DNA of 64,000 nucleotides from Nitrospinales bacterium (GCA_965262115.1 OZ253496.1:1920001-1984000), one strand, 5' to 3'. Shown: positions 9,154-51,878, numbered from the stretch's first letter. Notes: generated by a model from the letters alone, not told the origin. Translations and numbers: made by a program.

Positions 9154-9301
9154 TACCCATGCTGGGCACGAAGTTAATGTTGGGGATATCACGTATACCT
9201 CCCGGGCACGAAGTCTAAGGTGGAATATAATGCGCTCACGAAAGCTTTGGTTGGGATTATTACCCTTTCAGGGCATGAAGGTTAAGGTTGGGAATATAAC
9301 G
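9154..9301 (+). repeat. Cluster of 3-4 copies of the ~40-bp TACCC..GGGCAYGAAG..ATCAC unit
   Basis: Units at 9154-9193, 9196-9232, partial 9233-9260, 9261-9301. Confidence 0.8.
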
Positions 9302-9305
9302 CCAA

Positions 9306-9323
9306 CTCCAGTGGTCGCGGGTT
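9306..9323 (+). repeat. 18-bp direct repeat of tRNA-His (att-like)
   Basis: ctccagtggtcgcgggtt is identical to 7542-7559. Confidence 0.7.
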
Positions 9324-9343
9324 GCAGGCCCCACCCTTTAGTT

Positions 9344-9883
9344 TCATTTTAATTTTTCCAAAAGGGCTAGCAAAAGGATTTTGGAATCATTTTTGCCCTT
9401 TTCATCGTTTTCTCTGTCGGCGATAGATTCGGCTTTTCTTATATGTTCAATTGCCTTGGAGCCGTTTTTTACCGCGTCGTACTCTCGTGCCAGGTTGTAA
9501 TGCACTTGAAAATCATCTGGGTTAAGGTCAAGGGCCTTACGGTGTTGTTCAATGGCTTTTTCTCATTCTCCCTGTTCTTCATAAATAAGACCAAGATTAA
9601 AATAGACTTTGGCATAATCCGGGTCGAGCTTTAAAATCTCCTGGCAAATGGCGATGGAATCGTCGTACCGCTTAAGCTTCCTGTAGGTAATGGACAGCCC
9701 ATGCATTGCCTTTTTATTTTTTGGGTTGAGGTGTATCGATGTTTCATAAGCCTCAGCATCCTCTTTCAGAAATTTCCCCTTGCGGCAGGCCAATCCTAAT
9801 TGGAAGTAAACTTCCGCGTCCTGGGGATGTTGCTCGACCGCTTTCCGGCAAGCTTGGATTTTTTTTTCATGCTGGTCCTTCAT
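9344..9883 (-). pseudogene. TPR protein, frameshifted near 9563
   Basis: TPR motifs (AKVYFNLGLIY) continue in another frame as EKAIEQHRKALDLNPDDFQVHYNLA. Confidence 0.7.
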
Positions 9884-10084
9884 GGGTCCGTATATCTCCG
9901 GTGACTTGCCACACTTTGACTACAGTGTTAAAGCAGTTAGGGTATCCATTTAAGATGACTTTCCCAATAGATTTCCTCATTCCATGGCATTCCATTCAAG
10001 CAGGCCCAATTTTCAGCATATCAATTCACTTTAATTTTAGCTAAAATTTACAATATCCCATCCGTCAAATCTTAACCACTACAA

Positions 10085-10420
10085 ATGAGTAATGAAACCC
10101 TACAGTCTATTTCTTCTTCAAAAAGAAGGTTTTTTTTATTCCATCCCTACAGTGGCGCTTTAATTATTGCTATGGATTGGGTATTTTTTGGTGTGGAAGC
10201 TGGTACTTTGGGTTTGAGTATACCGGTTATGTCTCTACTAGCATTTGCAACAACACTACTAGGGGTTTTCACTATTCAAATCAAACTAGCTAAAGATAAT
10301 TAGGCAATAGCCCTTGTGAAAGGTGTTTTGGGAGGGTTTGTTGCAGGCATCCCACCCATTGCGGGAACATTTATAGGAGCATTAATACTGGCATTATCTG
10401 GCTTATCAACGAAAAAATAA
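10085..10420 (+). pseudogene. Small membrane protein with internal TAG (10301-10303)
   Basis: Hydrophobic frame continues past the stop (AIALVKGVLGGFVAGIP...) to TAA at 10418-10420. Confidence 0.55.
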
Positions 10421-10431
10421 GGGGGCGAACA

Positions 10432-10932
10432 TTGAAGCCAGGCAGTTTTCATTTTTTAGCAGGGGTGTTTCTTATCTTGGGCCTTATGCTATTCGGCCGG
10501 CCGGTGGAAATTTATGCCATAGAGGGGGCCTCGGGCTACGACTCGGTAGGCAACTACATCGACGAGGCCGCTATCGATGAAACACGCAACCAGAAACTGG
10601 CCGCACAACGCCTCCAGCAAAAGCATGACGAATACGTCGAAAAGATCAAAAATGATCCCGACAATTACCTCTACCATTTCTACCTTGGGAAGCTATACCT
10701 GGAGCTCGACCGCCCCCACGAAGCCATCGCCGCCTTCAAGGAAACCCTGCTCATCACACCCGGGGATGGAAAGGTGCATTACCAGATGGGAAAAGCCTAC
10801 AGCCAAGCCAAAAACAGCGAAAAGGCGGTCGAACATATCGAAACAGCTAGCCGCATCTTCAAGGAAAACCTCGACCTGCACTGGCAAACCAAGGCCCGAA
10901 ACCTCTTGAGACAGATCCAGGAGCAGAATTAA
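10432..10932 (+). CDS. Secreted TPR protein
   Basis: Signal peptide and two TPR-like repeats. Confidence 0.75.
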   Translation: MKPGSFHFLAGVFLILGLMLFGRPVEIYAIEGASGYDSVGNYIDEAAIDETRNQKLAAQRLQQKHDEYVEKIKNDPDNYLYHFYLGKLYLELDRPHEAIAAFKETLLITPGDGKVHYQMGKAYSQAKNSEKAVEHIETASRIFKENLDLHWQTKARNLLRQIQEQN

Positions 10933-11084
10933 ATTTTCAGTAAAAGATGGGGATGAAGTGACACTGGGCAACAGGAGAATATTGTCAAACAGGAGGAGAA
11001 CTTAGGCTAAAAACGTGGGCAAAATAACTGTTTGTATTTCAATCATGGGACCCCCCACTGGATCTACCCCTTGTATGTTGTTCA

Positions 11085-11295
11085 TAAGGGAAATTTGTAA
11101 TAGTTGTTCCTGCGAGTTCTGTGAAAAACCGGTTTTTGGTTTTCCACAAGCTCCCAGGATTTGATTCAGGGCACAATAGATCGTTTACCCCTGGGGCTTT
11201 TAAGCCCGTCCCGCAGCGCAGATCGTTGTGTCCTATTTTGATTAACCCGAACAGTTGCCTGGGACTTTGAGTCCGCATCGACAAGGTTGGGAGAC
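11085..11295 (+). ncRNA. Predicted bridge RNA of IS110 copy 1 (ends approximate)
   Basis: Stem gggcacaatagatc/gatcgttgtgtcc encloses tttacccct (11184-92) and gtcccgcag (11208-16), matching the target; second loop has acagttgc (11251-58) and acaag (11281-85), matching the donor. Confidence 0.8.
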
Positions 11296-11301
11296 CAAAT
11301 T

Positions 11302-12232
<931 letters not shown>

Positions 12233-12456
12233 CATTTAACACAGTTGCTGCGGGGCATGAAGGCTAATGTTGGGGACACCACAAACACCGATGGACAGAG
12301 ACAAAAGATTCCCTCCCTTCATATGGAGGGACTTAGGGAGGGTTGGATTGACCGCCCGGAGTTTTGTCATCGCGAATCGCGAAGCGGCGTGGCGACCCAG
12401 GTTCTTTCATTGGGAATTGAATTAATATTGCAAGGCTGGATTGCCGCGCTCCTTTT

Positions 12457-12533
12457 ACCCCTTTGGGGCATGAAGGTTAAGGTTGAGGATATTACATATA
12501 CCTTCGGGGCAAGAAGTTAATGTTGGGAACATT
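12457..12533 (+). repeat. Two tandem copies of the ~40-bp unit
   Basis: tacccctttggggcatgaaggttaaggttgaggatattaca followed by taccttcggggcaagaagttaatgttgggaac. Confidence 0.75.
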
Positions 12534-12566
12534 TAAAAAGTTTTCAGATACTCGTCGAATATGACA

Positions 12567-12758
12567 TTAAAGCGCCGAACGTGGAGTTATGATTGGCCCA
12601 CCTCCTAACCCCTTCCACATTAAAACGAACAGAGTAATCACCAAAACTATAAAAACAGCCAAAATAATCTTGGCTGATTTACTCATGGCTGGTTCTGGTT
12701 TAACTTCATTTTGAGGCGACTCAACTTTTTTATATTGTTGCATATCGTTGCAGTCCAT
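12567..12758 (-). CDS. Small single-TM hypothetical protein
   Basis: 63-aa ORF with one strong hydrophobic helix; purine-rich RBS-like sequence upstream. Confidence 0.4.
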   Translation of the reverse strand: MDCNDMQQYKKVESPQNEVKPEPAMSKSAKIILAVFIVLVITLFVLMWKGLGGGPIITPRSAL

Positions 12759-13069
12759 TTCTGAGAAGGAGAGAGGGCTGGGGAAACAAAATTGCTTATG
12801 AGGACAAAGTTATAATTTACCTTTTTACTCTGCACCCAACTCCTACGGTACAATGTAGCACTATTCATGGGAGTGTGTCTGCAGTGAATGGGAGTGACAC
12901 AAAAAGTTAATAAAATAAATAGGTCCTAGTCAGGGTCATTTTAATTTTAATATTAAATTTGCAGCAAGAGAATACAGGTGGTAAAGAAAACTGAGACGAT
13001 TAGAAAACACATCTCGTCCAAACGATTGTTTACCGTAAGGTAGGGTGGAAAATAGAGGAGATTCGTTTA

Positions 13070-13291
13070 ATGACTGAACTGGAAGAACTCAATGACCCAA
13101 AGAAGCTTAATGATTTAATGGAAAAAATAAATACAAAATTGGCAATAATAGGTGTCCAGCTTAGAGAAAGGGTACCCATGTCACTGACTCTCTTAAGTGA
13201 TGAGTTGAACTACGAAATATCAACGGGTGATACAGTCTATCCACTAATTTTAGAGTGGTTTAAGAACAGATTTCCAGGCGAAAATATATAA
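13070..13291 (+). CDS. Hypothetical protein
   Basis: 73 aa, strong GAGGAG RBS. Confidence 0.5.
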   Translation: MTELEELNDPKKLNDLMEKINTKLAIIGVQLRERVPMSLTLLSDELNYEISTGDTVYPLILEWFKNRFPGENI

Positions 13292-13580
13292 GTAAAAGAC
13301 GAGTAAATTTAAATGTCCGCTTGGAAAATTTATACCGAAGCGCAAATGGCAACCTCAATAAATGGAGTTGGAGAGGTAGGCTAAAAGATGAACGATTGGA
13401 AACCGAAAACTAACTAAACAGGCAAAGATCAAATGGTGGTTCTGGCTCCTGTTAGCTGTTTTTTGTTTTGGTATATGGGTCAACCATCAAAGCATCCATC
13501 AAATGCGATAAAGATTGATCTTCCCCTGAATTGGTGGACACATCGAAAAGTGTGGATAATACACTTTTGGAGGTGTTTTT

Positions 13581-13855
13581 ATGGGAACCAAACGCAGGAG
13601 TTTCAGTAAAGAATTCAAGTTAGAAGCGGTTCGATTGGTTATTGAAGTAGGCGATAGCATTGCCCGGGTGTCCCGGGATCTGGGAATCCGTTCTGCCCTT
13701 CTGGGTCGCTGGAAACAGGAGTATGAGGAGGATCAGGGGAATGCGTTTCCCGGCAAAGGACAGCTTAAGCCGGGAGATGAGTTGCAGCAGTTGCGGCGAG
13801 AAAACGCTCGCCTTCGTATGGAGCGGGACATATTAAAAAAGGCGGCAGTTATCTT
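13581..13855 (+). pseudogene. IS3 orfA (HTH), interrupted; last codons at 15086-15104
   Basis: RRSFSKEFKLEAV...LRMERDILKKAAVI; removing the insert restores IFSKGSQ-stop overlapping the orfB ATG. Confidence 0.88.
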
Positions 13856-13906
13856 TGTGATGTCCTCTTCATTTGTCTTCATGCCCCGAAGCAACTGTGT
13901 TAAATG

Positions 13907-15065
<1,159 letters not shown>

Positions 15066-15100
15066 TGAACAACATACAAGGGGTACTCGAAGGGTTCCCA

Positions 15101-15964
15101 ATGAGATATCGGTTTATACGGGATCATCGAGAAGCATTTCCGGTAAGCCCGATGTGCCGGGTTCTGGAAGTGGGACGAAGTGGGTTCTATGCCTGGCTGA
15201 GCCGCCCCGAGAGCCTGAGGAGCCGTGAGAAGCAGCGATGGGTTGATGAGATCAAAACCGTTTATAAGAAGAGTCGCCAGACTTATGGCAGTCCCAGAAT
15301 TCATGAGGACTTGAAAGACAAGGGATATGCCATTGGCAGGCATCGTATTGCCCGTCTTATGCGCGAGCATGGAATCGTTGCCAAGCACAAAAGAAAGTTT
15401 AGGGTGACAACCGATTCCAAACATAATCACCCGGTGGCAAAAAACAAACTGCAACGGCGGTTTAATGTTGCTGAGCCCGGTCAATGCTGGGTTTCGGATA
15501 TCACCTATATCCCGACTCAAGAGGGCTGGTTATACCTTGCGGTGACGCTGGATTTATTCCACCGTAAAGTTATTGGTTGGGCCATGGATCGTTGGATAAC
15601 CCGTTGGTTGGTAATGAGAGCTTTAAATATGGCAATGAAGAACGGCGGCATGAAACCGGGATTGATTCACCATTCTGACCGGGGGGTTCAATATGCCTGC
15701 AACGATTTTCAAGCCTTGCTCAATGTTCATGGGATAGAGTGCAGTATGAGCCGGAAGGGCGATTGCTGGGATAACGCCGTGGCGGAGAGTTTTTTCCATA
15801 CTCTCAAAGTGGAACTCATTCATAACCGGAACTACAAAACCCGTCAGCAAGCAAAGAAGGATATTTTTGAATATATCGAAGTGTTTTATAATCGGCAACG
15901 CCGTCACTAATATCTCGGCTATCTCAGCCCTGCCGAATTCGAGAAACAGGCCTATGCCTCTTAA
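15101..15964 (+). pseudogene. IS3 orfB DDE transposase with premature TAA at 15908-10
   Basis: [33 protein letters not shown]; frame continues YLGYLSPAEFE. Confidence 0.88.
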
Positions 15965-16103
15965 CTAACTGTCCACTAAAACAGGGGAAGATCAGTATGT
16001 GATATCCCCATCATTTATATTTCTGCATTGGACGATGTTTCCTATTCGGAATAATGATAAACTTGGCAATAAACTCAAAACTCTCGATATGGAGATTGTA
16101 AAG

Positions 16104-16634
16104 ATGAACAAGACTCTGTTTACATTTGTGGTCATGCTCTGCTTTCTGTTCGTGGCGACATTTTCATCGGCTGGACCAGAAGGACACAAACCCTATGTTG
16201 GATCGAAAGCCTTCGAGCGAATGAAACAACTGGCAGGAAACTGGGCAGCCTCTATGAAAATGGGGGAGGAAGTCATGAAGATGAAGTCCAGCTATAAACT
16301 GACTTCCGCCGGAAGCGTATTGATAGAAACCACGCATGAAGGCGCACCGCATGAGATGGTGTCGGTCTACCACGACAACAAAGATAAAAAACTGGTCATG
16401 ACCCATTATTGCGCCGAGCATAACCAGCCTAAACTGGTTCTTGCAAAAATGGACGGCAACAAACTGACGATGGACCTTTCTTCTGACAGTGACATCGATG
16501 TTGCCAGGGAGATGCATATTCACGCTGTTTCCATCGAGTTTGAAGGGGATGACAAGATGACCCAGCAGTGGACAAGTTATTCGGATGGCAAAGAGGGGAT
16601 GGTCGTGACAATGGCATTCAACAGGGTGAAATGA
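16104..16634 (+). CDS. Secreted hypothetical protein
   Basis: GGAG RBS, signal peptide, beta-rich body with MTHYC..NQP. Confidence 0.7.
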   Translation: MNKTLFTFVVMLCFLFVATFSSAGPEGHKPYVGSKAFERMKQLAGNWAASMKMGEEVMKMKSSYKLTSAGSVLIETTHEGAPHEMVSVYHDNKDKKLVMTHYCAEHNQPKLVLAKMDGNKLTMDLSSDSDIDVAREMHIHAVSIEFEGDDKMTQQWTSYSDGKEGMVVTMAFNRVK

Positions 16635-16665
16635 TGCTCTGAAATAATATGCAGGGGTAATAAAA

Positions 16666-16812
16666 ATGAAACAGACCCGAAAGAAAACCCCGACTAAGCC
16701 AGGTCAACCGCGCAAAATAGTCAAAAAGGTCCGGAAAGATTTGGCGAAGAAAAAACAGGCCGAGGACCAACAGAAACTGGCCCAACTGTGGGACGAAGAT
16801 CTTTGTGAGTAG
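16666..16812 (+). CDS. Small Lys/Arg-rich protein (48 aa; not in ORF track)
   Basis: MKQTRKKTPTKPGQPRKIVKKVRKDLAKKKQAEDQQKLAQLWDEDLCE with AGGGG RBS. Confidence 0.4.
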   Translation: MKQTRKKTPTKPGQPRKIVKKVRKDLAKKKQAEDQQKLAQLWDEDLCE

Positions 16813-16888
16813 AGGGTGTGCGGCAATGCCGCATGAAGTTAAAGGAAGAGGGCCGCGGATGAGGGGTCGCCCCATGGGCTTCGCCTCT

Positions 16889-19214: not shown

Positions 19215-19613
19215 AGATTAGCTGGCGAACCGCTAGAGGCTGGGACGGGAGGATTTTCGTCATCGCGAGTGACCGCAAGGAGCGCGGCGATCTAGCAGGA
19301 CTCTCTTGTCATTCTGAATACTTCGACCATGCTCAGCACAGGCTCCGTGAAGAATCTCGTTTTGTTCGATGGGATGGAGGGGTTTGCTTTAAACGTAATG
19401 GAGGGAGGCTGTCATGCTGAGGCCCTCGAAGGATATTGTTATTTAATTTTCTCTCCCATAACAAACTGATCCTCCCCTCTCATGAGAGGAGGCAAGGCGT
19501 AGCCGCGGAGGGGTGTGGATTTTTTCTGATGGAATTCATAAGCCAACCCTCCCTTGGCCCCTCCCTATGAAGGGAGGGGAAGATCATACTTTATCTTCTT
19601 CCCCGCAGGGGTA

Positions 19614-19718
19614 TCAATACCCAAGCACGGTGTGGAACACAGCACCGATGCCCACGCACCAGTAAATGCTGGCACCGATAAGATTCCATATTGAGGCTGT
19701 GATTTCTTGGAAGGTCAT
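19614..19718 (-). CDS. 34-aa hydrophobic peptide B
   Basis: MTFQEITASIWNLSGASIYWCVGIGAVFHTVLGY; homologue at ~21136-21240 differs by synonymous changes at its 3' end. Confidence 0.55.
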   Translation of the reverse strand: MTFQEITASIWNLIGASIYWCVGIGAVFHTVLGY

Positions 19719-19819
19719 TGCACCACCGCCTTAACCACAAAGAAAAAGAACGCGAGCGTGGTGATGACGGTGTTCGCCACCGCCGACCAGATCATGATTT
19801 TGTGAGTGAGTTTTTCCAT
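19715..19819 (-). CDS. 34-aa single-TM peptide A
   Basis: MEKLTHKIMIWSAVANTVITTLAFFFFVVKAVVQ; ATGA overlap with peptide B; RBS-like sequence upstream. Confidence 0.55.
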   Translation of the reverse strand: MEKLTHKIMIWSAVANTVITTLAFFFFVVKAVVQ

Positions 19820-19974
19820 AGCCTTTATATCGTCCTCATTTTTTAAGGTCTGTGATCGGCCAAAAGGGGACTCTTATTTGGTGGAGTAGGAGTTTGTTAT
19901 ATCGCGTCCAATCTCTTTCAATGCGATCCACGGTGGATTTTTGAAAATCTTCAAGGGGCAACAAAAATTGCCGA

Positions 19975-20292: not shown

Positions 20293-20305
20293 AAATTTCC
20301 CTTTT

Positions 20306-21099: not shown

Positions 21100-21135
21100 A
21101 TAACAACGAACCTTTACTCATCGAACGCTAGGGGT

Positions 21136-21377
21136 CAGTATCCCAGAACCGTGTGGAACACAGCACCGATGCCCACGCACCAGTAAATGCCGACACCAAT
21201 CAGGTTCAATATGGACGCCTTGATTTCTTGGAAGGTCGTTGCACCACCGCCTTAACCACAAAGAAAAAAACGCGAGCGTGGTGATGGTGGTGTTGGCCAC
21301 CGCCGACCAGATCATGATTGTGTGAGTTACCTTTTCCATCATTTTTTAAGGTCTGCTATCGGCCAATAGCGGATATT
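21136..21377 (-). pseudogene. Diverged second copy of 19614-19872 (peptide A/B pair, disrupted)
   Basis: Direct repeat of ~240 bp; 1-bp deletion in peptide A, ATGA overlap changed to ACGA. Confidence 0.7.
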
Positions 21378-21428
21378 CACACAGCTTTGACTCACAGGCG
21401 GCGTTTGCGCGTCCGGTACCACAAATAA

Positions 21429-24628: not shown

Positions 24629-24634
24629 CCTGGA

Positions 24635-27362: not shown

Positions 27363-27609
27363 GAGAGCTTTACATAACCCCGGATTACCCCTGCGGGGCA
27401 TGAAGTTTAATGAAGAGGATATCACATACCCCTGCGGGGCACGAAGGTTAAGGAAAAATATCACGTCTTCGTCACTTTGTTCCTCAGAATGACAAAATAG
27501 CCCAGTATTGTCATGCTGAGCTAGTGATATTTGACCTTTGAATTCTTGCCCCGTAGGGGTGTCTCGAAGCATCTTGCTTCTTCGTTTGTTCGACTTACGC
27601 AAAGGTCTC
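27363..27609. mobile_element. MITE-like element with GAGAsCTTTrC termini, containing two tandem 40-bp units (27386-27465)
   Basis: Ends gagagctttacataac / gacttacgcaaaggtctc; homologous to 49608-49937. Confidence 0.65.
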
Positions 27610-33689: not shown

Positions 33690-33728
33690 TACCCTTTCAG
33701 GGCACGAAAGCTTGGGAAGAATGCCACG
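33690..33728 (+). repeat. 39-bp unit inserted in a host repeat
   Basis: Flanks ctcggcccaacgagccattg | ctatctgcct rejoin to match the reverse complement of 56999-57028. Confidence 0.8.
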
Positions 33729-33764
33729 CTATCTGCCTAAGATTGGGGAAATGGTGTTTTCTTG

Positions 33765-35375
33765 TCATTCTGAACGAAGTGAAGAATCTGGCATTGTTGT
33801 TTTCTGCAACCGAATCCGTTTCAAATATAAAAGTTCCATAGCGTTATTCTTTAATCCTTGCACATAAGGTTTGACCAGCAGGTTCTGGGCCGAAACAAAA
33901 AGCGGAATCATTGGAACTTCTTTTTCGGTGAGCAGGGTTTGGGCTTCATCATAGACTGCTTGCCGGTCTTCCGGTTTTTCCAACGCAGACCCCATGGCGA
34001 TTAGTTCGTCGTAACGGGGGTGAGACCAATTAAGCCGGTTATTGCCGCTGGTTGTAATGAACAGGTTCATGAAGTTGTCGGGGTCGGGGAAATCCGCTCC
34101 CCATCCCAGCCGAAAAATCTGCGGTGGGTCGAGATCCAACCGGCTGAGAAAAACTTTCCACTCCTGGCTTTCAAAATCAATCTGCACATTCAGATGTTCT
34201 TTCCATTGCGCCTGAATGAATTCCGCGATGAAGTGGTTGAGATCGCCGGTGTTGAAGACCGCGGTCACTTTTGGAAACCCTTTGCCGCCGAGATAGCCCG
34301 CTTCAGCCAACAGGGCTCTGGCCTTTTCAGGGTCAAACTTTGATCCTATGTTTTCGTTATAACCGAACATGCCTTTGGGAATCCATGATGAAGCAGGCAG
34401 TTCCCCGCCTTTGAGGAATTTAGGAATGCGGGACCGGTTGATGGCATGGGCAAATGCCCGCCGGATCAACACATCATCGAAGGGCGGTTTTTGCACATTG
34501 AAGCCGTAGTAATAACCCCGTAGCTGAGGTTTGTTCCGGTATTCCTGACTGGATTTATAATGCGGAATCGCAACTGGCGGCAGTTCGAGATAGTCCAACT
34601 CTCCGGTTTCGTAAAGGGTCAGGGCAGTGGTGGGTTCCTGCACCACAAAAATGCGGATGGCGTCGACAGCGGGTTTGCCTTCGTAGTGGCGAGGGTTGGC
34701 TTGCAACACTATTTTGTATTCATGCTGCCATTCTTCAAGTGTGTAAGGGCCATTGGTGACAATATTTTTAGGCTCTGTCCAGGAGTCTCCATGTTTAAGG
34801 ACAATATCTTTTCGCACCGGGAACGTAACCATGAACGTGGTGATGCTGGGAAAATAGACCACGGGTTTTTTTAGGCGGACTTCAAGAACATCCGGCGCCA
34901 GTGTCCGCACCCCGACCTGGCTGGGATCGGTAATTTCCCCCGAATTATATTGCGAGGCATTTTCGATGTCGAAGAGGAAGTAAGCATATTGGGCCGCCGT
35001 CTCCGGTGCCAGCAATCGTTTCCAGGAATACTCAAAGTCCTCTGCGGTGACTGGCTTGCCGTCACTCCAGGTAACATCGTCGCGTAGGAAAAAAGTGATG
35101 GTTCGGCCGTCCTCCGAGTATTCCCATTTTTTGGCAATGGCGGGTTGGGCATTCAATTCCGAATCGTACTGGGTGAGCCCTTCCATGATGTTGGTGAGAA
35201 TCGTGAAAGAAACACTGTCTGTCGCCAGAGTCCAGTCGAGGGTAGGGGGCTCGTTTTTTATAGACATGCGGAAAACAGATTCGTCCGTTGGGGAAGACGG
35301 ACTGCAACCGGTGAGAACCCACGAAAAAATTACAACCTGTAACCAGAAAGAAAAAATGGTGTTTTGCAATTTCAT
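33765..35375 (-). CDS. Peptide ABC transporter substrate-binding lipoprotein (OppA family)
   Basis: Lipobox LTGC, WSDGKPVTAEDFEYSW, NGPY, GWGADFPDP. Confidence 0.92.
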   Translation of the reverse strand: MKLQNTIFSFWLQVVIFSWVLTGCSPSSPTDESVFRMSIKNEPPTLDWTLATDSVSFTILTNIMEGLTQYDSELNAQPAIAKKWEYSEDGRTITFFLRDDVTWSDGKPVTAEDFEYSWKRLLAPETAAQYAYFLFDIENASQYNSGEITDPSQVGVRTLAPDVLEVRLKKPVVYFPSITTFMVTFPVRKDIVLKHGDSWTEPKNIVTNGPYTLEEWQHEYKIVLQANPRHYEGKPAVDAIRIFVVQEPTTALTLYETGELDYLELPPVAIPHYKSSQEYRNKPQLRGYYYGFNVQKPPFDDVLIRRAFAHAINRSRIPKFLKGGELPASSWIPKGMFGYNENIGSKFDPEKARALLAEAGYLGGKGFPKVTAVFNTGDLNHFIAEFIQAQWKEHLNVQIDFESQEWKVFLSRLDLDPPQIFRLGWGADFPDPDNFMNLFITTSGNNRLNWSHPRYDELIAMGSALEKPEDRQAVYDEAQTLLTEKEVPMIPLFVSAQNLLVKPYVQGLKNNAMELLYLKRIRLQKTTMPDSSLRSE

Positions 35376-40304: not shown

Positions 40305-40311
40305 GGCGGGG

Positions 40312-42265: not shown

Positions 42266-42303
42266 CATCTAACGTCCATAACTATTAAAAAAAGGAGTTC
42301 CTC

Positions 42304-43488: not shown

Positions 43489-43523
43489 GTATCTATAATT
43501 TCCCCGCCATATAAGGCGCATTC

Positions 43524-44276
43524 ATGAACGTTACAATACTGGGTTCCGGCACCGCAGTGCCATCTTTGGAACGCAATTCGTCCGGTGTGCTCATTCAGGA
43601 ACAGGGCATCAATACCCTGGTTGATTTCGGCTATGGAACCCTGAAACAACTTTTGCACTTGGGAATCACCTACCACGATATTGACCGGATTTTTTTCACC
43701 CACAACCACCCGGATCATATGTGTGATTTGATCCCTTTCTTATTCGGAGCCCGTTACCGTCCCTCATCAAGAAAAAAAGATTTGGAAATCGTTGCCGGGC
43801 CTGGGTTTCAGGGATTTTTTGACAAACTCATGTCGACGTTCAAGCATTGGCTTGTCCCCACTGAATATCAACTCCGCATCACGGAAATTGATGAGGGATC
43901 GAAAAAGTTTGGCTGTCATCAGGTCATCTTCAAAAAAGTCCAACATATCGAGATGAGCCGGGGCTATCGGTTTGAGAACCCGGCGGGAAAGTCGGTGGCG
44001 TTATCGGGAGATACCGATTATTGCCAGGGCATGATCGAACTGGGTAGGCAGGCGGATCTTATGATTTTGGAATGTGCCTTTCCCGATGAAGATAAAGTGG
44101 CGGGACATCTGGTTCCCTCGCTGGCAGGAAAGCTGGCGAAAGAAGCCGACTGTAAAACGCTTTGCCTCACCCATTTTTATCCACCCTGCGATTTGGATGC
44201 CATGCGCGAAACCGTATCCGGCCTCTATGCCGGTGAACTAGTTCTGGCCCAGGACCTCATGCAGTTTGAACTGTAA
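43524..44276 (+). CDS. MBL-fold hydrolase, RNase Z-like
   Basis: LGSGT, THNHPDH, SGDT, LTHFY. Confidence 0.85.
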   Translation: MNVTILGSGTAVPSLERNSSGVLIQEQGINTLVDFGYGTLKQLLHLGITYHDIDRIFFTHNHPDHMCDLIPFLFGARYRPSSRKKDLEIVAGPGFQGFFDKLMSTFKHWLVPTEYQLRITEIDEGSKKFGCHQVIFKKVQHIEMSRGYRFENPAGKSVALSGDTDYCQGMIELGRQADLMILECAFPDEDKVAGHLVPSLAGKLAKEADCKTLCLTHFYPPCDLDAMRETVSGLYAGELVLAQDLMQFEL

Positions 44277-44607
44277 CGGGGCACTCGGCTCCTAACTTTT
44301 TCCCTCTCTTCGGTCTTCGATAAAGTCCACCACGAACATGAACAGCCGGATGACCCCGATAGTGGCGAATATACCGACCAAAAGTTGAAACAGGGGCGGT
44401 AGGGCAATGATAAAGTTTTTAATACTATCAATGAGTGTGTCCAAAGAAATACCTTGAGTGTGTCCAAAGAAATACCTTGCAGATTAAAAATGGATTTCAG
44501 ATTTTACCCCAAGTTGCAGAAACCACAATAGCTTTTATTAGCAAGTATTAGCCAATTTATCTGAAAACATTGTTGGTGACAGTAAAAAGTTTTGCATATT
44601 GGCCCCA

Positions 44608-44689
44608 TGTTATGACCCCTCATCGGTTATGATGTCCTCTCCCTTAACCTTCATGCCCGGCACGGGTACTTCATGCCCCGAAAGGGGTA
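44608..44689 (-). repeat. Nested pair of 41-bp units
   Basis: Inner unit 44628-44668 inside outer unit; flanks rejoin to ttggccccacgccgagtgg, present intact at 45483-45501. Confidence 0.8.
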
Positions 44690-44910
44690 CGCCGAGTGGG
44701 CGGAGTGCCTCCGCTGGCATAAACAAGGGATTTTCCCTGCGCCCAATGGTTCCTTCGCTTTAGGGGCTATTGCTAGTTACCTCTACGGTTAGTGGTGGAA
44801 CCCTTTGAAAACATTTTGCTCCCCAGAAATTGCTGGTTAGGGGTTCACTCCGTTTTTTTTCTCCGGTATAATCTATGGATAATCGCTTAATTGCAAAAAG
44901 GGATGAGCAT

Positions 44911-45387
44911 ATGCCAGCATTTTCAAATTTTGTTTTAGCAACCTGCCTCGTTTTTTTTCTCAATGTTGCTCCGGTTGCGGGTTTTGTCGACAACCAGAAT
45001 GGCACCATAACGGATTCGAATACCGGCCTGGTTTGGCAAAAAGACGATTCTTTTCATGAGTTGAAAAAGGGACTCAACTGGTATCAGGCGTTGGAGTATA
45101 TCTCCAGAAAAAATTTGGAAAAGTTTGCGGGAAACGATGGTTGGCGGCTACCCACCTTGAAAGAACTGAACGGTTTATGGGTATCTTCAGGAAAGATTAA
45201 AAGCAAGGATGAGGAAACCCTTGGGCTTCCCTCTGCATTTGAAGGCGGAGGCAGTTATTATATTTGGACCGGGGACGAGCGCGGACTGGACCATGCCTGG
45301 TATTTTGGCCTGGGCCATAAAGAAAACTATTTTAACCTGAAAGATATGGCAGACCTGGAACAAGGCGTCAAAATGGTCCACCACTAG
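44911..45387 (+). CDS. DUF1566 (Lcl C-terminal) domain protein
   Basis: DNQNGTITDSNTGLVWQK, GWRLPT..EL. Confidence 0.85.
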   Translation: MPAFSNFVLATCLVFFLNVAPVAGFVDNQNGTITDSNTGLVWQKDDSFHELKKGLNWYQALEYISRKNLEKFAGNDGWRLPTLKELNGLWVSSGKIKSKDEETLGLPSAFEGGGSYYIWTGDERGLDHAWYFGLGHKENYFNLKDMADLEQGVKMVHH

Positions 45388-45550
45388 GCGTCGGGTCTTG
45401 TGCCCGGTGGAAATAGAACAATAGCTCATTGGCAATAAAGAGTTATCTTGGCTTGGCAGCACTCATGTAATATGTGGGCTAGTTGGCCCCACGCCGAGTG
45501 GCCAGCGTCACGCTGGCCACCGACGGTACGCCGGTTAGGAGATAAGATAT

Positions 45551-47293
45551 ATGAAACAAAAAGCACGGTTTGTCCAATCAGGGTTGGTGTTACTGGTGTT
45601 GGCGGGTTTGTGCTACGCCGCTTCGTTGGCGATTGCGCAGGAACATAAAATGGATCACGGTGACGGTGCCATGGATCATGGTGCGATGGATCACGGTGCA
45701 ATGGATCACTCTGCGCCCGGAGATGAATACCGGGTTGATGAGCCCATGGACCACGGCGATCACGGTGCCATGCAACATGAAGAAGGGGACAGTTTATTCC
45801 GCACCCGGGGATCTCATGATCAGCCAGACCTGTCCAAGCCTGAAGATATGGACTCCAAAAGCCTTCTGGCCCGCGGCCGCAACATTTATATGCATATGTG
45901 TGTATTCTGCCATGGACAAGACGGCAACGGGGGCGGCATAGCGGTTGAATTTTTATATCCCTGGCCGAGAGATTTTAGAGAAGGAATTTTTAAATTCCGC
46001 TCCACCCCGACGGGCACTCTTCCCCGCGATGAAGATTTATACCGCACCATCATAAGCGGTGTTCCCGGCACATCCATGCCGGCCTGGGGAGACGCGTTGA
46101 GCCCCCAAGACACCTGGGCTTTGATCAATCACATTAAAAACTTTTCCCCGCGATTCAAAAACGAACCGCAGGGTGAAAAAATAGTGGTTGCCAAACCCCT
46201 TGAATCTTCGCCGGAGCTGGTGGCCCGGGGCAAAAAACTTTTTAAGGAATTGAAATGCTTCCGCTGTCACGGTGAGTCTTTAAAGGGGGATGGCGAGCTG
46301 GCCGAATCGCTCATAGATGCCTGGAAGCACGCAGTGTTTGTGCATGACATCACCAACCCCCATTATTTCAAGAGTGGGCACAAGCCGGAAGACCTGTTCA
46401 GAACCATCACGGTCGGATTGGATGGAACCCCTATGGGTTCCTACCTTCACGTTCCCGAAAAAGACCGTTGGGCGCTGGTGCATTATATTGGTTCAAATTT
46501 GGTGAAGGAATTTAAAGAAGCGGAGTTTGAAACGGATCTTTATTCACTTCCTGTGGGAGTGGAACTGAGCACCGATCCTTATAGTCCGGTGTGGGAAGGG
46601 GTTGCCACAACAAACCTGGTATTGCGTCCGCTAGCGGCGAGGCGTGATGCGGTGGAATTTATTAATGTGTCTTCAGTGAATAACGGCGAACAGCTGGCGG
46701 TGCGTTTGCAGTGGAACGACCCGACTCATGACGCGTTTTCTGAATTGCGTTCAGATATCTTCCGCGATGGAGTGGCGGTGCAATTTGCATTGGGGGCGGT
46801 GACGCTTCACACTCATGGGCATAATGAACCGTTTTTTGGCATGGGCAACCGCAACAAACCGGTAAATATCTGGCATTGGAAAGCCGGCCTGGAAGAAGCG
46901 CTCGAAGCCGAAGATGATCTGGAATATGCTGGCGGCGGAGTGGATATGGACGCGTTAATTTTTGGCGATATTATTGCTGAAACTTTCTCTCGTGTTAATA
47001 CGACAGGAGATAATCCAGTTGAAGAACTGAATGCCGAAGGGTTCGGCACGGTCACGCCGCAACCTCCTGAAAACCAGAATGTGGAAGGCGCTGGCGAATG
47101 GAAGGACGGTGTCTGGACCGTGGTTTTTCTCCGCGACATGCCAAAAACCGGTAAATGGGATGTGGACTTTGCCCAACGCATTGACCCTGCGTTGGTGGCC
47201 TTCGCGGTCTGGGATGGGGTTAAGGAAGACAGGAACGGACGCAAGGTGATCAGCGTCTGGCAACGCTTCAATGTTAAGAAGCCGAAACCTTGA
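45551..47293 (+). CDS. Di-heme cytochrome c fused to ethylbenzene-dehydrogenase-gamma-like heme b domain
   Basis: CVFCH and CFRCH; C-terminal LQWNDPT, DGVAVQF, MG....VNIWHWKA, AFAVWDG...R.GRK; MDHG repeats. Confidence 0.88.
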   Translation: MKQKARFVQSGLVLLVLAGLCYAASLAIAQEHKMDHGDGAMDHGAMDHGAMDHSAPGDEYRVDEPMDHGDHGAMQHEEGDSLFRTRGSHDQPDLSKPEDMDSKSLLARGRNIYMHMCVFCHGQDGNGGGIAVEFLYPWPRDFREGIFKFRSTPTGTLPRDEDLYRTIISGVPGTSMPAWGDALSPQDTWALINHIKNFSPRFKNEPQGEKIVVAKPLESSPELVARGKKLFKELKCFRCHGESLKGDGELAESLIDAWKHAVFVHDITNPHYFKSGHKPEDLFRTITVGLDGTPMGSYLHVPEKDRWALVHYIGSNLVKEFKEAEFETDLYSLPVGVELSTDPYSPVWEGVATTNLVLRPLAARRDAVEFINVSSVNNGEQLAVRLQWNDPTHDAFSELRSDIFRDGVAVQFALGAVTLHTHGHNEPFFGMGNRNKPVNIWHWKAGLEEALEAEDDLEYAGGGVDMDALIFGDIIAETFSRVNTTGDNPVEELNAEGFGTVTPQPPENQNVEGAGEWKDGVWTVVFLRDMPKTGKWDVDFAQRIDPALVAFAVWDGVKEDRNGRKVISVWQRFNVKKPKP

Positions 47294-48630
47294 TAAAAGG
47301 ATTCTGCATTGCCATTTTCGTTGTTTTTGTAGCCTCTCCGTTAAAGGCAGAGGAGCCGGTAGCCCCTAAGGGAGAAACATCGAACCTGAACCAGAAGCTT
47401 CTGTCCGATGTTAGCAAGTTCCCCCCGCAGGGAGTGGTGGGCCTGGGTGAACTGGATCGGTTGATTCAGCTTCACCTGCCGAAAAAATTTCAAGAAGGTG
47501 TTGGTCCTTCCAAAAAAGCGAGGCTCCTGCCCCAAAGTGAAGAAACCGTTTTTACCATCCCCGGATTCGAAGCTTATGGTTGCGGGGAGTGCCATAAGTC
47601 GGACGAGCTGCTGGACAAGTCGATTGACCGGATGCGGCAATCGCTGGATCGCCTGAACTCTATTTTTCCCGATCTCCCCCCGCCATCGTTCAAACAGTTT
47701 ATAATCCAGTCTGGATCGGATGAATGGTTGCGTCCCGGTCAGTTTGCCCACACCACTTTTGACACGATCCGAATTTTTCCTGCCGCGATTCTGGTAGACA
47801 GCCGTGTGTACGGAAATGCCACGCACCTGCATGAGTCCCTGCATTTGACCCAGCCGTTTTTGGGGATTGCCAATGAACTGGAAGCGTATGGGTTGAATAT
47901 TCGCGCCAATCCCAAATTTCTGATTTTAAATTTTCCTTATTTTTCCGACACGATCACGGCATTTTTTATTCCTGAATTTCCAGATATCCTCAACCGGTTT
48001 TTTGCCCGCGAGGTGAAAGAGGAGGTGACCGTTCCTAAAGAGGTGCAGTGGTTTTTAATGCCTTTTGAAGACGATACGCTGGGCAAGTTAGAAATCGCCA
48101 TAAAAAAACTGGACCCGGTGTTAAAGGAAGTGTCGCGTCTAAACCGGACCTATCCTTTTAAGTCGGCTTATCTGGGTGAGCAGACGCGTGCGTTTTCGTT
48201 ATTGCTCGACATTGCGGCGGTAAAAACTCTGCCGCTCCCTCCATTGGAGTTGGCTCCCTCGGCGCTCAAAGAAGCGTTTGAAATTTTGGAAATTCAGCTC
48301 AGCAAACTCGATAACACCCGGTTGGGCTACCGCATCGACCGCAAACGCGAGGCCCTGTTGACCATGACCTATCATTTGCACTTGAAGGATTCCGCAACCC
48401 GGTTGGGAATTTATTTTCGGTTTTTAAAGCAACGGTTCATCGGAGAGGATGGAGAAGTAAATCTGGTGGTGCCGGATGAGGAAGATTTTAAGCTGTATGT
48501 TGAAGAGAAACGCCGCGAAATCGCCAGGATGGCAGACTCGCCAAAACTCACGCCGGTTGAGAAAGCGGGGGCCTTAAGAATGCTGGAAAATATTCCGCCC
48601 GGCGAGCCGCCGGAGGCAATGGGGCGGTGA
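47290..48630 (+). CDS. Secreted hypothetical protein with CxxCH and HExxH motifs
   Basis: Signal peptide, CGECH, HESLH; overlaps upstream stop codon. Confidence 0.65.
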   Translation: MIKGFCIAIFVVFVASPLKAEEPVAPKGETSNLNQKLLSDVSKFPPQGVVGLGELDRLIQLHLPKKFQEGVGPSKKARLLPQSEETVFTIPGFEAYGCGECHKSDELLDKSIDRMRQSLDRLNSIFPDLPPPSFKQFIIQSGSDEWLRPGQFAHTTFDTIRIFPAAILVDSRVYGNATHLHESLHLTQPFLGIANELEAYGLNIRANPKFLILNFPYFSDTITAFFIPEFPDILNRFFAREVKEEVTVPKEVQWFLMPFEDDTLGKLEIAIKKLDPVLKEVSRLNRTYPFKSAYLGEQTRAFSLLLDIAAVKTLPLPPLELAPSALKEAFEILEIQLSKLDNTRLGYRIDRKREALLTMTYHLHLKDSATRLGIYFRFLKQRFIGEDGEVNLVVPDEEDFKLYVEEKRREIARMADSPKLTPVEKAGALRMLENIPPGEPPEAMGR

Positions 48631-49022
48631 TGCGACCACCGTAAGGCGCGGAGCTTGAATGTTTTAATTTCCCAATCACAAGGAATTTTACCTTGTCTTG
48701 GAATGCTGTTATTTTGAGATTTGATAGGCAACAAGTAATACCATGGCCATAGTACCAAACGCGGCTAACGACACAAGCGTGATCAGGTGTCCCCCGGATA
48801 AAGCTCTAAAAGTTTTCAGAATTTCAACAATGCCTTGCATTAAAGCGATCTCAAAAAAAACTTTTAAGTTTTTGCCTAAATATATTTTCCCACAAGCTTT
48901 TGTGCTTTAATAGATTTACCATTTAATAGTGAAGCGAAAAAAGCTAACAGCACTTAGGCGGACTGAAGGAAAAGAAATTTATATCGCAACCTCATAACCT
49001 TCCTCCTTTAAAACCGGAAAGT

Positions 49023-49424
49023 TTAGCGGTTTTTCCGTAGATCGTTAATTAGTCTTCTGGTAGAACTTCCGGGAACTAGACATTCCCAAAACATCCAACC
49101 ATTTATCGGGTATTTAGTTATTTCCATTGCTGCACTTGAGGGTGAATAAAACCTTTTCCCTTTAAAAACTAAGGCACCATTTTCAACCCTCGCTCTATAA
49201 TCCGTACATCTGAAATTTGCATAAAATTGGGTGCCGTGGGGGAATGAGACATTTTTTACAACCCAAGGTTTTTCATCCTGTTGTTCACTGCTGATTTCTA
49301 CTTTTGGTAGTTCTAATAAATCGCGAATGACATCATTGCAGGTGAACTCTTCTGTTGAGCGCCTACAGGTTAATTCTCTAAAGACATCAAAATCGATTTC
49401 AATCGTTCGCATAGCATCCTCCAA
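49023..49424 (-). CDS. RAMA/DUF4357-like putative DNA-binding protein
   Basis: N-terminal TIEIDFDVF; C-terminal F.SPSSAA......NGW.FW; low GC. Confidence 0.6.
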   Translation of the reverse strand: MEDAMRTIEIDFDVFRELTCRRSTEEFTCNDVIRDLLELPKVEISSEQQDEKPWVVKNVSFPHGTQFYANFRCTDYRARVENGALVFKGKRFYSPSSAAMEITKYPINGWMFWECLVPGSSTRRLINDLRKNR

Positions 49425-49607
49425 ACTATAATGTAATACTCCAATATTATATCTACTATTTCTATTTGTTAATAGAAATAGTAGTTTTTAATTTTCAGGT
49501 GTCTTTTATTTCATGATTTCAGTATGTTAAAGTTATTGTTATCTTTTTGCAGGGCTATTTATTTGGTCCATTGAGCTACCCTCACCTCAATCCTCTCCCT
49601 TCAGGAG

Positions 49608-49937
49608 GAGAGCTTTGCATAACCTGGGATTACCCCTTCTACCCGTTCCGGGCATGAATTTAGCGGAGGGGATATCACAGGCTCACGAAGGTTAAGGAAA
49701 AATCCCACGTCTTCGTCACCTTGTTCCTCAGAATGACAAAACAGCCTTGTATCGTCATTGCGAACGTAGTGAAGCAATCCAGAACCTGGATCGCCACGCT
49801 CCTTTCCAGTCGCTCGCGATGACAGGAGAGGGTAATTGTCATTCTGAACGCAGTGAAGACGTGATGTTTCACTTAAGCTTTCGTGCCCGGAACGGGTAAT
49901 CTCGCTTTTCTGATTTTTCGACTTATGCAAAGGTCTC
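49608..49937. mobile_element. 330-bp MITE-like element with 15-bp TIRs and 9-bp TSD
   Basis: GAGAGCTTTGCATAA / TTATGCAAAGGTCTC (14/15); CTTCAGGAG at 49599-49607 and 49938-49946; contains three 40-bp units. Confidence 0.8.
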
Positions 49938-50173
49938 CTTCAGGAGAGGAGGCAAAAAAATCCCTTCTCCCTTGGAGGGAGAAGGTTAGGATGAGGGGGC
50001 TAATAATGAATCTTTTTCCTTGCTACATTGGGGGGGCAGGTTCGGGCGGTGACGCAGGGGGGGCAGGTTCGGGCGGTGACGCAACCTTTGGCCGAAAAAT
50101 AAATAAATTGAAGTGAGAGTTGTTAAAGCAAGCCGAGAAAATCATTGCTAGCCGGTGAAAGTTACTGCAAGTC

Positions 50174-50243
50174 TACCCGTGCTACCCTTGCGGGGCATGA
50201 AAGATGAGGAAGAGGGACATCACAGCTACGGAAGAATATCACG
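50174..50243 (+). repeat. Nested/partial 40-bp units
   Basis: Complete unit 50183-50224 inside a deleted outer unit. Confidence 0.7.
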
Positions 50244-50262
50244 ACCTGCGGCGGCTCGCCAG

Positions 50263-50805
50263 TTAGAGTCTGCTGGCGGGGGTGATGAGAGCAGGACCTT
50301 TGACATGGTCTTCCAGGGTTTCCGCTTGCACCTTGTCCTGCAATTTCATCAGAGCGTCGATCACCATTTCGGGTCTTGGCGGGCATCCCGGAATATAGAC
50401 ATCGACCGGGATGAGGGTATCAATTCCCATCACGGTGGAGTAGTTGTCGTAGAATCCGCCTGATACCGTGCACACTCCATAAGCGACCACCCACTTGGGT
50501 TCGGTCATTTGGTTATAGACCTTGGTGAGAATAGGAGCCTGTTTGTGGCTGATGGTTCCGACGACCATGAGCAGGTCGGCCTGCCTCGGTGAAAACCGGG
50601 GAAATGCAGCACCAAATCGGTCAAGGTCGTATTTCGGACCTGCCACGGACATGAACTCCATTCCGCAACATGCGGTGATGAAGGGATAGATAAAAAAGGA
50701 ATATTTTCGTGCCCAGTTAATGGCCTGGGTCATTTGCGTTACGATCACGTTATTACCCAGACTCATCTCGGTCTCGGTTCTGTATAGTCCAGCCATGCTA
50801 TCCAC
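50263..50805 (-). CDS. nuoB: NADH-quinone oxidoreductase subunit B (stand-alone)
   Basis: TACCGMEF, SPRQAD, GVCTVSGG, PGCPPRPE. Confidence 0.92.
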   Translation of the reverse strand: MDSMAGLYRTETEMSLGNNVIVTQMTQAINWARKYSFFIYPFITACCGMEFMSVAGPKYDLDRFGAAFPRFSPRQADLLMVVGTISHKQAPILTKVYNQMTEPKWVVAYGVCTVSGGFYDNYSTVMGIDTLIPVDVYIPGCPPRPEMVIDALMKLQDKVQAETLEDHVKGPALITPASRL

Positions 50806-51119
50806 TCCCTAATTGAGATTTATATTGTATTCTAAAATATTTTTAGCAAAAAATCCACCCACATCCGTGGGAGGGAGTAGGCTCCCAGCCTTCGGTGGTC
50901 GCGTCAGCGTGATGTTGGGCCCAATGAGTCCTTCCTGTGAGACCTAAACCGGTGTATAATCGGGTCATCGTCAAAAGCTGGCATAGGCTTACACCTACAC
51001 TGGGAGACCCGGGTTGGGTGGGTTTTCAGTTGCCTCTACGGCTAGTAGTTGCCAATTGTTTGAGAAAGGGAATTATGGATTACAGTGGTAACAAGACCGC
51101 CATGGGCCAGGAAAGGGTC

Positions 51120-51623
51120 ATGGCTGAGACCGAATCAATTGTCCGGATGAATTTGAGCAAAGATGGCAAAACCCTTGATCTTACTGCCACTTATTTGAAG
51201 GAGTATGGCGCTAAGGACATAGCCCGCATGGAGTTTTTGCGGCCTTTAACCAACCTGGCATTTGGGACGAATTTATGTGGTCCCAAGGGCGCGAAATATA
51301 TTGCCCAGTCTGAAGTGCTGGTTAACCTGACTTCGTTAAATATGTTTTACAACCGGCTTGGCAACGAGGGGATCAAATATCTCGCGGTATCCGATAATCT
51401 TTTGAGTTTGCAGAACCTGGTCCTCACTGATAATGAAATCACCGATGAGGGGGCTTTGGTTTTAGCGAAATTCATGCCTCTTTTCACTAATCTGGTGCGC
51501 CTGGATTTGCGTCTCAACCGGCTTAGGGATGAAGGAAAAGACGCCCTTAAAGAAGCGCAAAAAGTGTCTGCTGTCAAACACCTGCTACTGGACAAGGTAG
51601 AAGGTTTTCAGGTGAAGGGTTAG
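51120..51623 (+). CDS. Leucine-rich repeat protein
   Basis: Same LRR type as 36281-38428; ATG 51120 probable start. Confidence 0.8.
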   Translation: MAETESIVRMNLSKDGKTLDLTATYLKEYGAKDIARMEFLRPLTNLAFGTNLCGPKGAKYIAQSEVLVNLTSLNMFYNRLGNEGIKYLAVSDNLLSLQNLVLTDNEITDEGALVLAKFMPLFTNLVRLDLRLNRLRDEGKDALKEAQKVSAVKHLLLDKVEGFQVKG

Positions 51624-51781
51624 CGGCGAGCCGCCGCCACTCGGCGCCAGCGTGACGCTGGACCCAATAATGTCATGCTGAGGCTCTCGAAGCATCTCGG
51701 CTTGACGAGTTTTTGCTCGTAGCCTCTGGCGGCTTGCTCCTATTAAGCCGCGCTGATCTTTTGTTGGTCCATCCACGTTAT

Positions 51782-51878
51782 TACCCCTGCGGGGCACGAA
51801 AACCAAGGACAAATATCACGTGCTCATTGCCTCCCTCGTGTTAAATTTTTCGTTAGCTTTCATGCCCCGGAAGGGGTA
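51782..51878. repeat. Inverted pair of 40-bp units
   Basis: + unit 51782-51820, - unit ~51837-51878. Confidence 0.75.

Follow-up and report, generated by a model that had tools for sequence, protein, structure and literature searches.

We analyzed a 64,000-nucleotide (nt) stretch of DNA from a Nitrospinales bacterium (GCA_965262115.1 OZ253496.1:1920001-1984000), which we call the window, together with its 2.68-Mb parent genome (G000) and the genomes of relatives. The window contains ~22 copies, whole or partial, of a repeat of 39-41 nt that we refer to as the unit. Comparisons of filled and empty sites make it nearly certain that the unit is mobile. It inserts with exact ends, has no terminal inverted repeats, leaves no target-site duplication, and nests at preferred positions in copies of itself. 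A base in its interior covaries with its last base. We favor a single-strand route in which the two ends are splinted together and an enzyme acts in trans, and we give this reading a probability of roughly 0.4.

Exact insertion of a 39-41-nt unit

The unit has the consensus TACCC-S-TNC-S-GGGCA-Y-GAA...ATCAC-R. It starts with TACCC (390 of ~460 unit starts) and ends with ATCAC plus one variable base, mostly A or G. A hidden Markov model (HMM) built on 59 distinct seed units gave 352 matches in the parent genome at a cut-off of E<=0.1. The reversed genome, used as a control, gave 0. A search of the window with Rfam at gathering thresholds returned 2 tRNAs and nothing else.

We found empty paralogous sites for 152/264 full units. 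In 128 of these 152 comparisons the missing length was exactly that of the unit (TACCC...ATCAC and one base), and therefore the unit is 39-41 nt, with a variable last base and no duplication. Three such pairs that a first-pass annotation of the window had reported hold up. The 39-nt unit at 33690-33728 (+) has an empty paralogue at 56999-57028 on the minus strand, with 2 mismatches. At 44608-44689 (-), found by HMM and sequence comparison, a host unit contains a 41-nt unit (44628-44668) nested after GAAG, and the empty site is at 45483-45501. The 39-nt unit at 49860-49898 (-) has an empty paralogue near 33764-33790. The last two comparisons are exact at their junctions.

Orthologous sites were compared over 400 kb of a relative at ~93% identity, in aligned segments of <6 kb only. 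Two clean 39-bp insertions or deletions (indels) corresponded to the unit. Two larger indels, of 182 and 200 bp, were host repeats carrying a unit, so hitch-hiking also occurs. The multiplicity of units at the same host-repeat site is partly due to hitch-hiking on larger repeats and on the insertion sequence (IS) IS3.

The unit interrupts IS3. All of the IS3 junctions found in this genome (15/15) carry a unit, which lies just after the A6G slippery site, and the copies are 99.5-100% alike. In contrast to these filled copies, 7/7 related IS3 loci inspected in 5 other genomes were empty at exactly the insertion base of the unit. The IS3 of the window (13516-15994, +; inverted repeats, orfA and orfB, identified by domains and junction comparison) is broken at the orfA/orfB overlap. 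The first-pass annotation had restored orfA by deleting 13856-15085. The related loci confirm the base at which it did so, but this genome offers no empty IS3 for comparison. The same annotation held that intact IS3 copies with the same 41 bp would speak against mobility; the related IS3s are empty, yet every IS3 copy found here is filled. We found no other intact IS3-type transposase in this genome. Several IS3 copies share one flank and lack a target-site duplication. Splicing of the unit out of IS3 mRNA was weighed as well; since units avoid ordinary genes, we did not adopt it.

Units also insert into units, as had been noted before. Nested insertions favor positions after host base 9 (33 cases), base 20-21 (11 cases) and base 30 (6 cases), and occur in tandem and antisense as well. 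Short-read contigs from four sequencing runs covered the unique stretches of the window. Among the matches listed, no joint in these contigs passed over an entire unit at a unique position, although contigs drop rare variants.

Placement of the unit is almost wholly intergenic. Only 24/352 matches fell inside open reading frames (ORFs) of at least 150 amino acids (aa), and these were mostly in IS3 orfA, spurious frames or over-long starts. Density was higher between convergent genes. Repeated DNA harbored 58% of units (152/264) by the paralogue test, compared to 11% of 500 random intergenic positions. With origin and terminus taken from GC skew, orientation was balanced between replichores (168 vs 184 units), and neighboring genes imposed no strand preference either (105 vs 98). 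Units were enriched near the origin, as were host repeats. At L068:2400-3800 we observed an array of ~280-bp CGTC-type repeat mosaics, resembling a cluster of bacterial interspersed mosaic elements, with one unit in each. In two genomes (G000:C1 1807904-1807940; L117) a tRNA-like sequence follows one and the same unit subtype at a distance of a few bases, and the left flanks differ.

We counted an exact 19-base pattern from the unit genome by genome. Of the 22 other genus members, 20 had it (copy numbers 0 to 284); it was also present in 5/14 further genomes of the family and in 1/24 genomes from other families. A partial scan of all GTDB genomes listed matches at 80 loci, and 75 of these were titled Nitrospinota. 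A single 50-kb phage contig holds six different, intact units (L021, L516-L517, L519, L524, L525, L532). The phage looks temperate and carries host-type repetitive extragenic palindromic (REP) repeats alongside the units; such a phage is a possible vehicle between strains. One of its units adjoins a TIR-domain-like gene pair (L519:2581-3503), read from the sequence by eye.

End pairing, target sites and a possible route

The first-pass annotation proposed a very small asymmetric hairpin element. Folding as a single strand is supported by compensatory changes at two pairs. Bases 1-6 pair with bases 10-15 around a three-base loop. Pair 6-10 was C-G in 105, G-C in 40 and T-A in 12 of 175 distinct units in this genome. 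The second pair joins base 16 to the last base. These were Watson-Crick complements in 402/459 distinct units from all loci (87.6%; T-A 231, C-G 148, A-T 21, G-C 2), compared to a mean of 45.8% and a maximum of 52.7% in shuffled controls. The unmatched types included 40 T-G and 7 C-A. Base 16 was complementary to the flanking base at -1 in 16% and to that at +1 in 23%. Measured in this genome alone, the mutual information of the 16-last pair (0.78 bits) was second to that of pair 6-10 (0.91 bits). In tandem pairs such as that at 27386-27465 the match is found inside each unit and not between neighbors.

From the 16-last pairing we consider it likely that the ends of the unit meet, as they would in a single-stranded circle. 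G17 is invariant and the penultimate C nearly so, and the stem would gain two pairs across the end-to-start junction. In circular minus-strand folds, all 12 common units tried had the junction inside a stem of 8 bp capped by a GNA triloop, at near-zero energy. Judging from these sequences, an intermediate with both ends held together is likely, and would most simply be a single-stranded circle nicked in its stem.

Target preference is weak. The first-pass annotation saw no flanking consensus, but across 150 distinct targets there is one: W-N before the insertion point and N-V-Y-N-C after it. A/T occupies position -2 in 81% of targets, C/T is found at +3 in 73% and C at +5 in 65%, and T is rare at +2 (5%). 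The commonest natural flank from +2 to +5 is GCTC (16/150 targets).

Just downstream of the unit, filled sites differ from empty ones in excess. Compared to the consensus of empty paralogues, filled sites differed at +3 in 18/118 (15%), at +4 in 18/104 (17%) and at +5 in 12/104 (12%) of cases. Differences at other positions from -6 to +10 were 1-8% (123 sites with three or more empties). Nested insertions showed similar changes. After host base 9, where GGGGC or CGGGC is expected, the host resumed as NGCTC in 23/33 cases and was unchanged in 8. NGCTC was found in 0/132 uninterrupted units of this genome, and in none of the uninterrupted units of the genus among the matches listed (150, with 945 more in the search). 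NGCTC after base 9 is not confined to one inserted unit: several different ones show it, the tails can match the resident host, and loci of other genomes have it too. After host base 20, the tail began GCTAC in 6/9 cases, most of the 6 with one shared inserted unit, and in at most 1/176 empties. Natural right flanks of the form NGCTCA exist.

The change at +3 to +5 is apparent in the sequences compared. The new bases could be carried over from the old right flank, could be copied from a template in trans, or could descend from a few old composites spread by conversion. It is likely that the changes were made at insertion, most simply by bases carried from the previous right flank. We also considered whether the unit encodes a guide in its variable middle. 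No consistent signal emerged, whether the register was flexible or fixed (best z 1.4; scattered z values reaching 3.6), and other comparisons showed only lineage-type associations.

In the route that we favor, the unit would fold as a single strand, probably of DNA, with its inner arm holding both ends side by side. A nicking-and-rejoining enzyme, acting in trans, would cut the unit out as a tiny circle. This circle would join into intergenic sites, many of them rich in hairpins, for which it has a weak preference. Sometimes a short piece of the previous right flank would travel along and replace the target bases at +3 to +5. A more specific version is possible but somewhat unlikely: that the unit is a self-splinting 40-nt mobile nucleic acid whose arm pairs both ends in a nicked hairpin circle, that it lands through base pairing of a short carried flank, or of a trans guide, with the target and overwrites +3 to +5, and that its enzyme belongs to no known transposase, recombinase or reverse transcriptase (RT) family.

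Several observations weigh against the end-splinted route. No enzyme for moving the unit was found. There is no replichore bias, unlike the situation with fork-dependent HUH elements. The strand is ambiguous. GNA triloops and G-T pairs are typical of stable DNA hairpins, and the GNA loop together with a G-T at 2/14 favors the minus strand, whereas the excess of T-G over C-A at the 16-last pair favors the plus strand or RNA. The junction is crossed by only two base pairs. The covariation counts are not independent events, because units are related by descent; four 16-last pair types are seen despite this shared ancestry. Carry-over of flanking bases is not obligatory, as near-identical units precede unrelated right flanks, and the similarity of units did not predict the similarity of right flanks (69 target families). 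Positions +1 and +2 have no excess of changes, and the excess at +3 to +5 rests on few site classes.

IS110, candidate movers and rival explanations

Two 1.2-kb inserts in the window encode DEDD_Tnp_IS110, and the longer ORF also contains Transposase_20. A full-length IS110 ORF (316 aa) is present elsewhere in the genome. The first insert (11072-12249, +; domain and guide match) is an IS110 of the bridge-RNA type with a broken frame, and its right target guide fits the local CTGCGGG. It splits a single 41-nt unit (11065-12283, +) at its CT (11070-11071). The second (13890-15078, -; domains and fold) is frameshifted and splits, also at the CT, the single 41-nt unit within IS3 (13856-15085, -). 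The predicted fold of its left end is of the bridge-RNA type, a stem-loop with two internal loops (z -5.8). By sequence comparison, each composite is one unit split by IS110 rather than a long form of the unit. Autonomous long forms were sought more widely among 34 left halves with no nearby right end. These were mostly nested, truncated or degenerate, and none enclosed a gene.

The association of IS110 with the unit is general. All right ends (26/26) continue into the 3' portion of a unit; 25/26 left ends come after the first bases of a unit, always at CT. The sole off-target left end belongs to an IS110 within the bridge-RNA region of another IS110 (G000:C1 2144619-2145980). The same IS110 ends adjoin units at two loci of other genomes (L204 and L050). 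In the predicted bridge RNA, the guides match the unit as target and the IS's own ends as donor. Guide and target co-vary: 2 IS110 copies with CTGCGGG sit in the matching loop variant, and the other full-length copies have CTTCGGG. The cut site of IS110 is the internal CT of the unit, five bases inside its end, and DEDD_Tnp_IS110 was not found in the unit-rich genomes G018, G019, G022 and G047. IS110 therefore exploits the unit and is not its mover. By the evidence of its junctions and guides, IS110 is a secondary parasite with the unit as its landing site.

We searched for enzyme families that could move the unit; all absences reported here are limited by the incompleteness of the compared genomes. 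The first-pass annotation had suggested a Y1 enzyme of the IS200/IS605 or REP-associated tyrosine transposase (RAYT) type. Searches for Y1_Tnp found none here and none in the unit-rich G013, G007, G018, G022 and G010; it was present in the unit-free G009, and occurred in 15/61 genomes without tracking the unit. No RAYT/Y1 gene was found flanked by the unit. A 325-aa Y1/RAYT-like gene in G019 (L054:880-1919) is bracketed by its own 27-bp inverted repeat, with no unit. RVT_1 was found in 13/41 genomes, including 7/22 other genus members, and was not found in the unit-rich G007, G018 and G019. The only RT in this genome is a broken, eukaryote-looking fragment. It lies in G000:C1 ~1-100000, a region of low coding density, 38-44% GC and many simple tandem repeats that is probably foreign DNA joined to the assembly.

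Other families were no more informative. DEDD_Tnp_IS110 (18/61 genomes) and Cas1 (16/61 genomes, 6/22 other genus members) did not track the unit. By gene order and repeats, cas1 belongs here to three ordinary-looking systems resembling types I-C, II-C and I-F, and none has a unit array. For these CRISPR-Cas loci (G000:C1 2120041-2128000, 2643316-2647164 and 765604-769605) we observed that the I-C and II-C genes appear fragmented, that the I-C array has ~two repeats, and that the I-C repeat hairpin, CCCC-loop-GGGG, loosely resembles that of the unit. Serine recombinases (Resolvase) were found in 0/5 genomes. Tyrosine recombinases in 5 genomes were a XerC/D-like pair plus patchy extras. A double-strand tyrosine-recombinase model was rejected; it predicts that many units have their first five bases replaced, and TACCC is retained at most starts (see above). 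The search for Y2_Tnp gave 0/5 genomes, and its controls likewise gave nothing. GIY-YIG was found in 59/61 genomes, unit-free ones included, and is uninformative. It had 7, 6 and 9 matches in G000, G013 and G007, and a unit lay beside 2/10 small GIY-YIG loci shown. DUF559 had 9, 4 and 3 matches in G000, G013 and G019, and was not found in the unit-rich G007. At one locus (L235; G055:C1 634633-635972), small GIY-YIG genes lie in tandem with 562-bp spacing, each bracketed by CGTC-type repeats. Clustering of 1040 unit-adjacent ORFs revealed no recurring nuclease or recombinase, and no candidate in the 45 largest clusters.

Two rivals to the end-splinted route seem unlikely, though each accounts for part of the data. 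The unit could move through an RNA intermediate and target-primed reverse transcription: a plus-strand RNA with a 5' hairpin, paired ends and a short 3' tail of old flank would anneal by the tail to a nicked target, and the bases of the tail would be installed. The preponderance of T-G over C-A fits U-G pairing on the plus strand, the changes and the stronger consensus are both on the 3' side only, and there is no replichore bias. The first-pass annotation had mentioned an RNA route, and the T-G bias agrees with it, but the distribution of RT does not follow that of the unit. Moreover, there is no bias relative to the strand of flanking genes, and the GNA triloop fits DNA. Alternatively, Ssn-type GIY-YIG or DUF559 nucleases could nick hairpins, and host repair could copy the unit from a filled look-alike, co-converting flanking bases. 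More than half of the units are in repeats, many of them of the CGTC type, which is the kind that Ssn nucleases cut (PMC11893778). There are multiple GIY-YIG and DUF559 genes in unit-bearing genomes, and unit subtypes keep to particular target families. However, such copying does not account for how the unit first reached IS3 or the 150 distinct targets, nor for selection on the 16-last pair. Neither nuclease family is specific to the unit: GIY-YIG is also in unit-free genomes and lay beside a unit at only 2/10 of the small loci shown, and DUF559 was not found in G007.

The remaining alternatives are weaker still. A Y1 HUH transposase of the IS200/IS605 or RAYT type, lost or transient, might have moved the unit as a mini-element with fused ends. 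The lack of terminal inverted repeats and target-site duplication and the terminal hairpin fit this. In addition, the 5' side of the minus-strand target (G-N-R-B-N) resembles the unit's own 3' end, GGGTA, and target and right end resemble each other in IS608-type elements (PMC6006769). This explanation is nonetheless quite improbable: Y1_Tnp is absent from 5/6 of the richest genomes of the genus and present in a unit-free one, the Y1 gene of G019 has ends of its own, there is no lagging-strand bias or conserved tetranucleotide target, and the cut falls within the stem instead of at a distance from the hairpin. Movement of the unit in trans by the IS110 recombinase is largely refuted. IS110 is the commonest IS here, makes no target-site duplication and is physically tied to the unit, but it recombines at the internal CT, its guides treat the unit as target, and it was not found in four unit-rich genomes. 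Least credible of all is that the unit is not mobile and is instead a selected protein-binding site or regulatory hairpin. An intergenic location and enrichment between convergent genes would suit such a role. The empty orthologous and paralogous sites refute it, and nesting, the disruption of IS3 and a range of 0 to 284 copies within one genus also speak against it.

Units of the window and related systems

The units listed in the first-pass annotation are present, along with one that it missed. All were identified by HMM and sequence reading unless noted. A cluster on the plus strand begins with a 40-nt unit (9154-9193; C16, terminal G), followed by a degenerate tandem unit that starts with TATAC rather than TACCC (9194-9232), the 3' remainder of a host unit that has been split (9233-9260; read from sequence), which starts CGCTC with the usual GG at +3 and +4 altered, and a 41-nt unit (9261-9301). 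A second 41-nt unit (12456-12496, +) likewise precedes a degenerate tandem unit with a TATAC start (12497-12535, +). The match at 19582-19613 (-) is weak (E 2.3), partial and degenerate. Next to it, a duplicated segment of ~260 bp (19614-19875 and 21135-21378) has 88-89% identity, with copies 1.5 kb apart. The two tandem units at 27386-27465 (+), of 41 nt (T16/A) and 39 nt (C16/G), lie inside a CGTC-type repeat. The previously missed unit (27523-27561, -) is of the A16/terminal T type and lies in a REP-like repeat.

At 49631-49709 (+; sequence reading) a 40-nt unit (49640-49679) is nested after host base 9, and the host resumes with GGCTC, not GGGGC. The composite at 50174-50243 (+; read from sequence) consists of host bases 1-9, then a 42-nt unit (50183-50224), then the tail of a host from GCTAC onward. 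It is likely the product of a deletion between two nested insertions. A 39-nt unit (51782-51820, +) and a degenerate unit (51837-51878, -) complete the set.

We compared the unit to described systems using PMC11893778, PMC6006769, PMC3184786, PMC3116915, PMC11208160, PMC4390886, PMC3733652 and PMC2884548. The literature searched, which included few subscription papers and no supplements, yielded no description of a Nitrospinota unit. The closest kind is the small dispersed repeats (SDRs; SDR1-8) of the Nostocaceae, known but mechanistically unsolved, which are likewise very small, dispersed, present in many copies and precisely inserted. Elhai et al. in 2008 reportedly found SDRs to be 21-27 nt, to nest, to make no duplication and to contain a hairpin, with the mover unidentified. 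The unit, at 39-41 nt, would be longer. It lacks a fixed target and, unlike the Nostocaceae SDRs, is almost wholly confined to Nitrospinota among the loci listed. SDRs are mentioned in PMC3116915, and SDR5 inserts precisely into HIP1 (PMC4390886).

Other systems share fewer features. Like REP sequences and REPINs with their RAYTs, as described in PMC6006769, PMC3116915 and PMC3733652, the unit is a short extragenic hairpin with hundreds of copies and no target-site duplication, and is a target of IS110. Unlike them, it has no GTAG or CGTC tag, is single rather than an inverted doublet, and flanks no RAYT. No tetranucleotide of the GTAG type precedes the hairpin stem on its 5' side; on the plus strand the end of the unit lies there, and on the minus strand TTCR. 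The cut site lies inside the stem of the joined form, unlike in REP/REPIN and IS200/IS605 ends. IS200/IS605 derivatives also differ in having two subterminal hairpins rather than one and a conserved target of 4-5 nt that lies 5' of the left end, whereas the best target position of the unit is only 65% conserved, and the orientation bias linked to replication that is expected of such derivatives was not seen (168 vs 184). Miniature inverted-repeat transposable elements differ in having terminal inverted repeats and target-site duplications. A product of CRISPR/Cas1 is unlike the unit, which makes no duplication, has no array beside cas genes, and occurs in a genus with Cas1 in 6/22 other members.

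Many host repeats that receive units are of the CGTC type, as are the NTS/SRM repeats of Ssn nucleases, which also involve single-strand hairpin biology (PMC11893778). The unit is not itself an SRM; within CGTC-type hairpins its insertions lie in the loop or on the 3' side, with no gene association shown. The 1.2-kb inserts resemble IS110 elements of the IS621 type: they have DEDD and Transposase_20 domains, the CT core, an extended non-coding left end with two guide loops, and a repetitive target, and the bridge RNA of IS621 targets REPs (PMC11208160). They differ in that their target is itself a mobile micro-element. The result is a three-tier nest of parasites, in which the unit breaks IS3 and an RNA-guided IS110 is programmed against the unit.

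Precise insertion of repeats of 20-40 bases with no known transposase has been an open problem since the cyanobacterial SDRs. The unit offers two testable marks: the compensating pair of inner and last bases predicts an end-joined single-stranded intermediate, and the flank change predicts a carried flank or a template. If true, the self-splinting reading would be the clearest handle yet on precise micro-insertions of 20-40 nt, and would reveal a natural, scarless chemistry for inserting and editing DNA.

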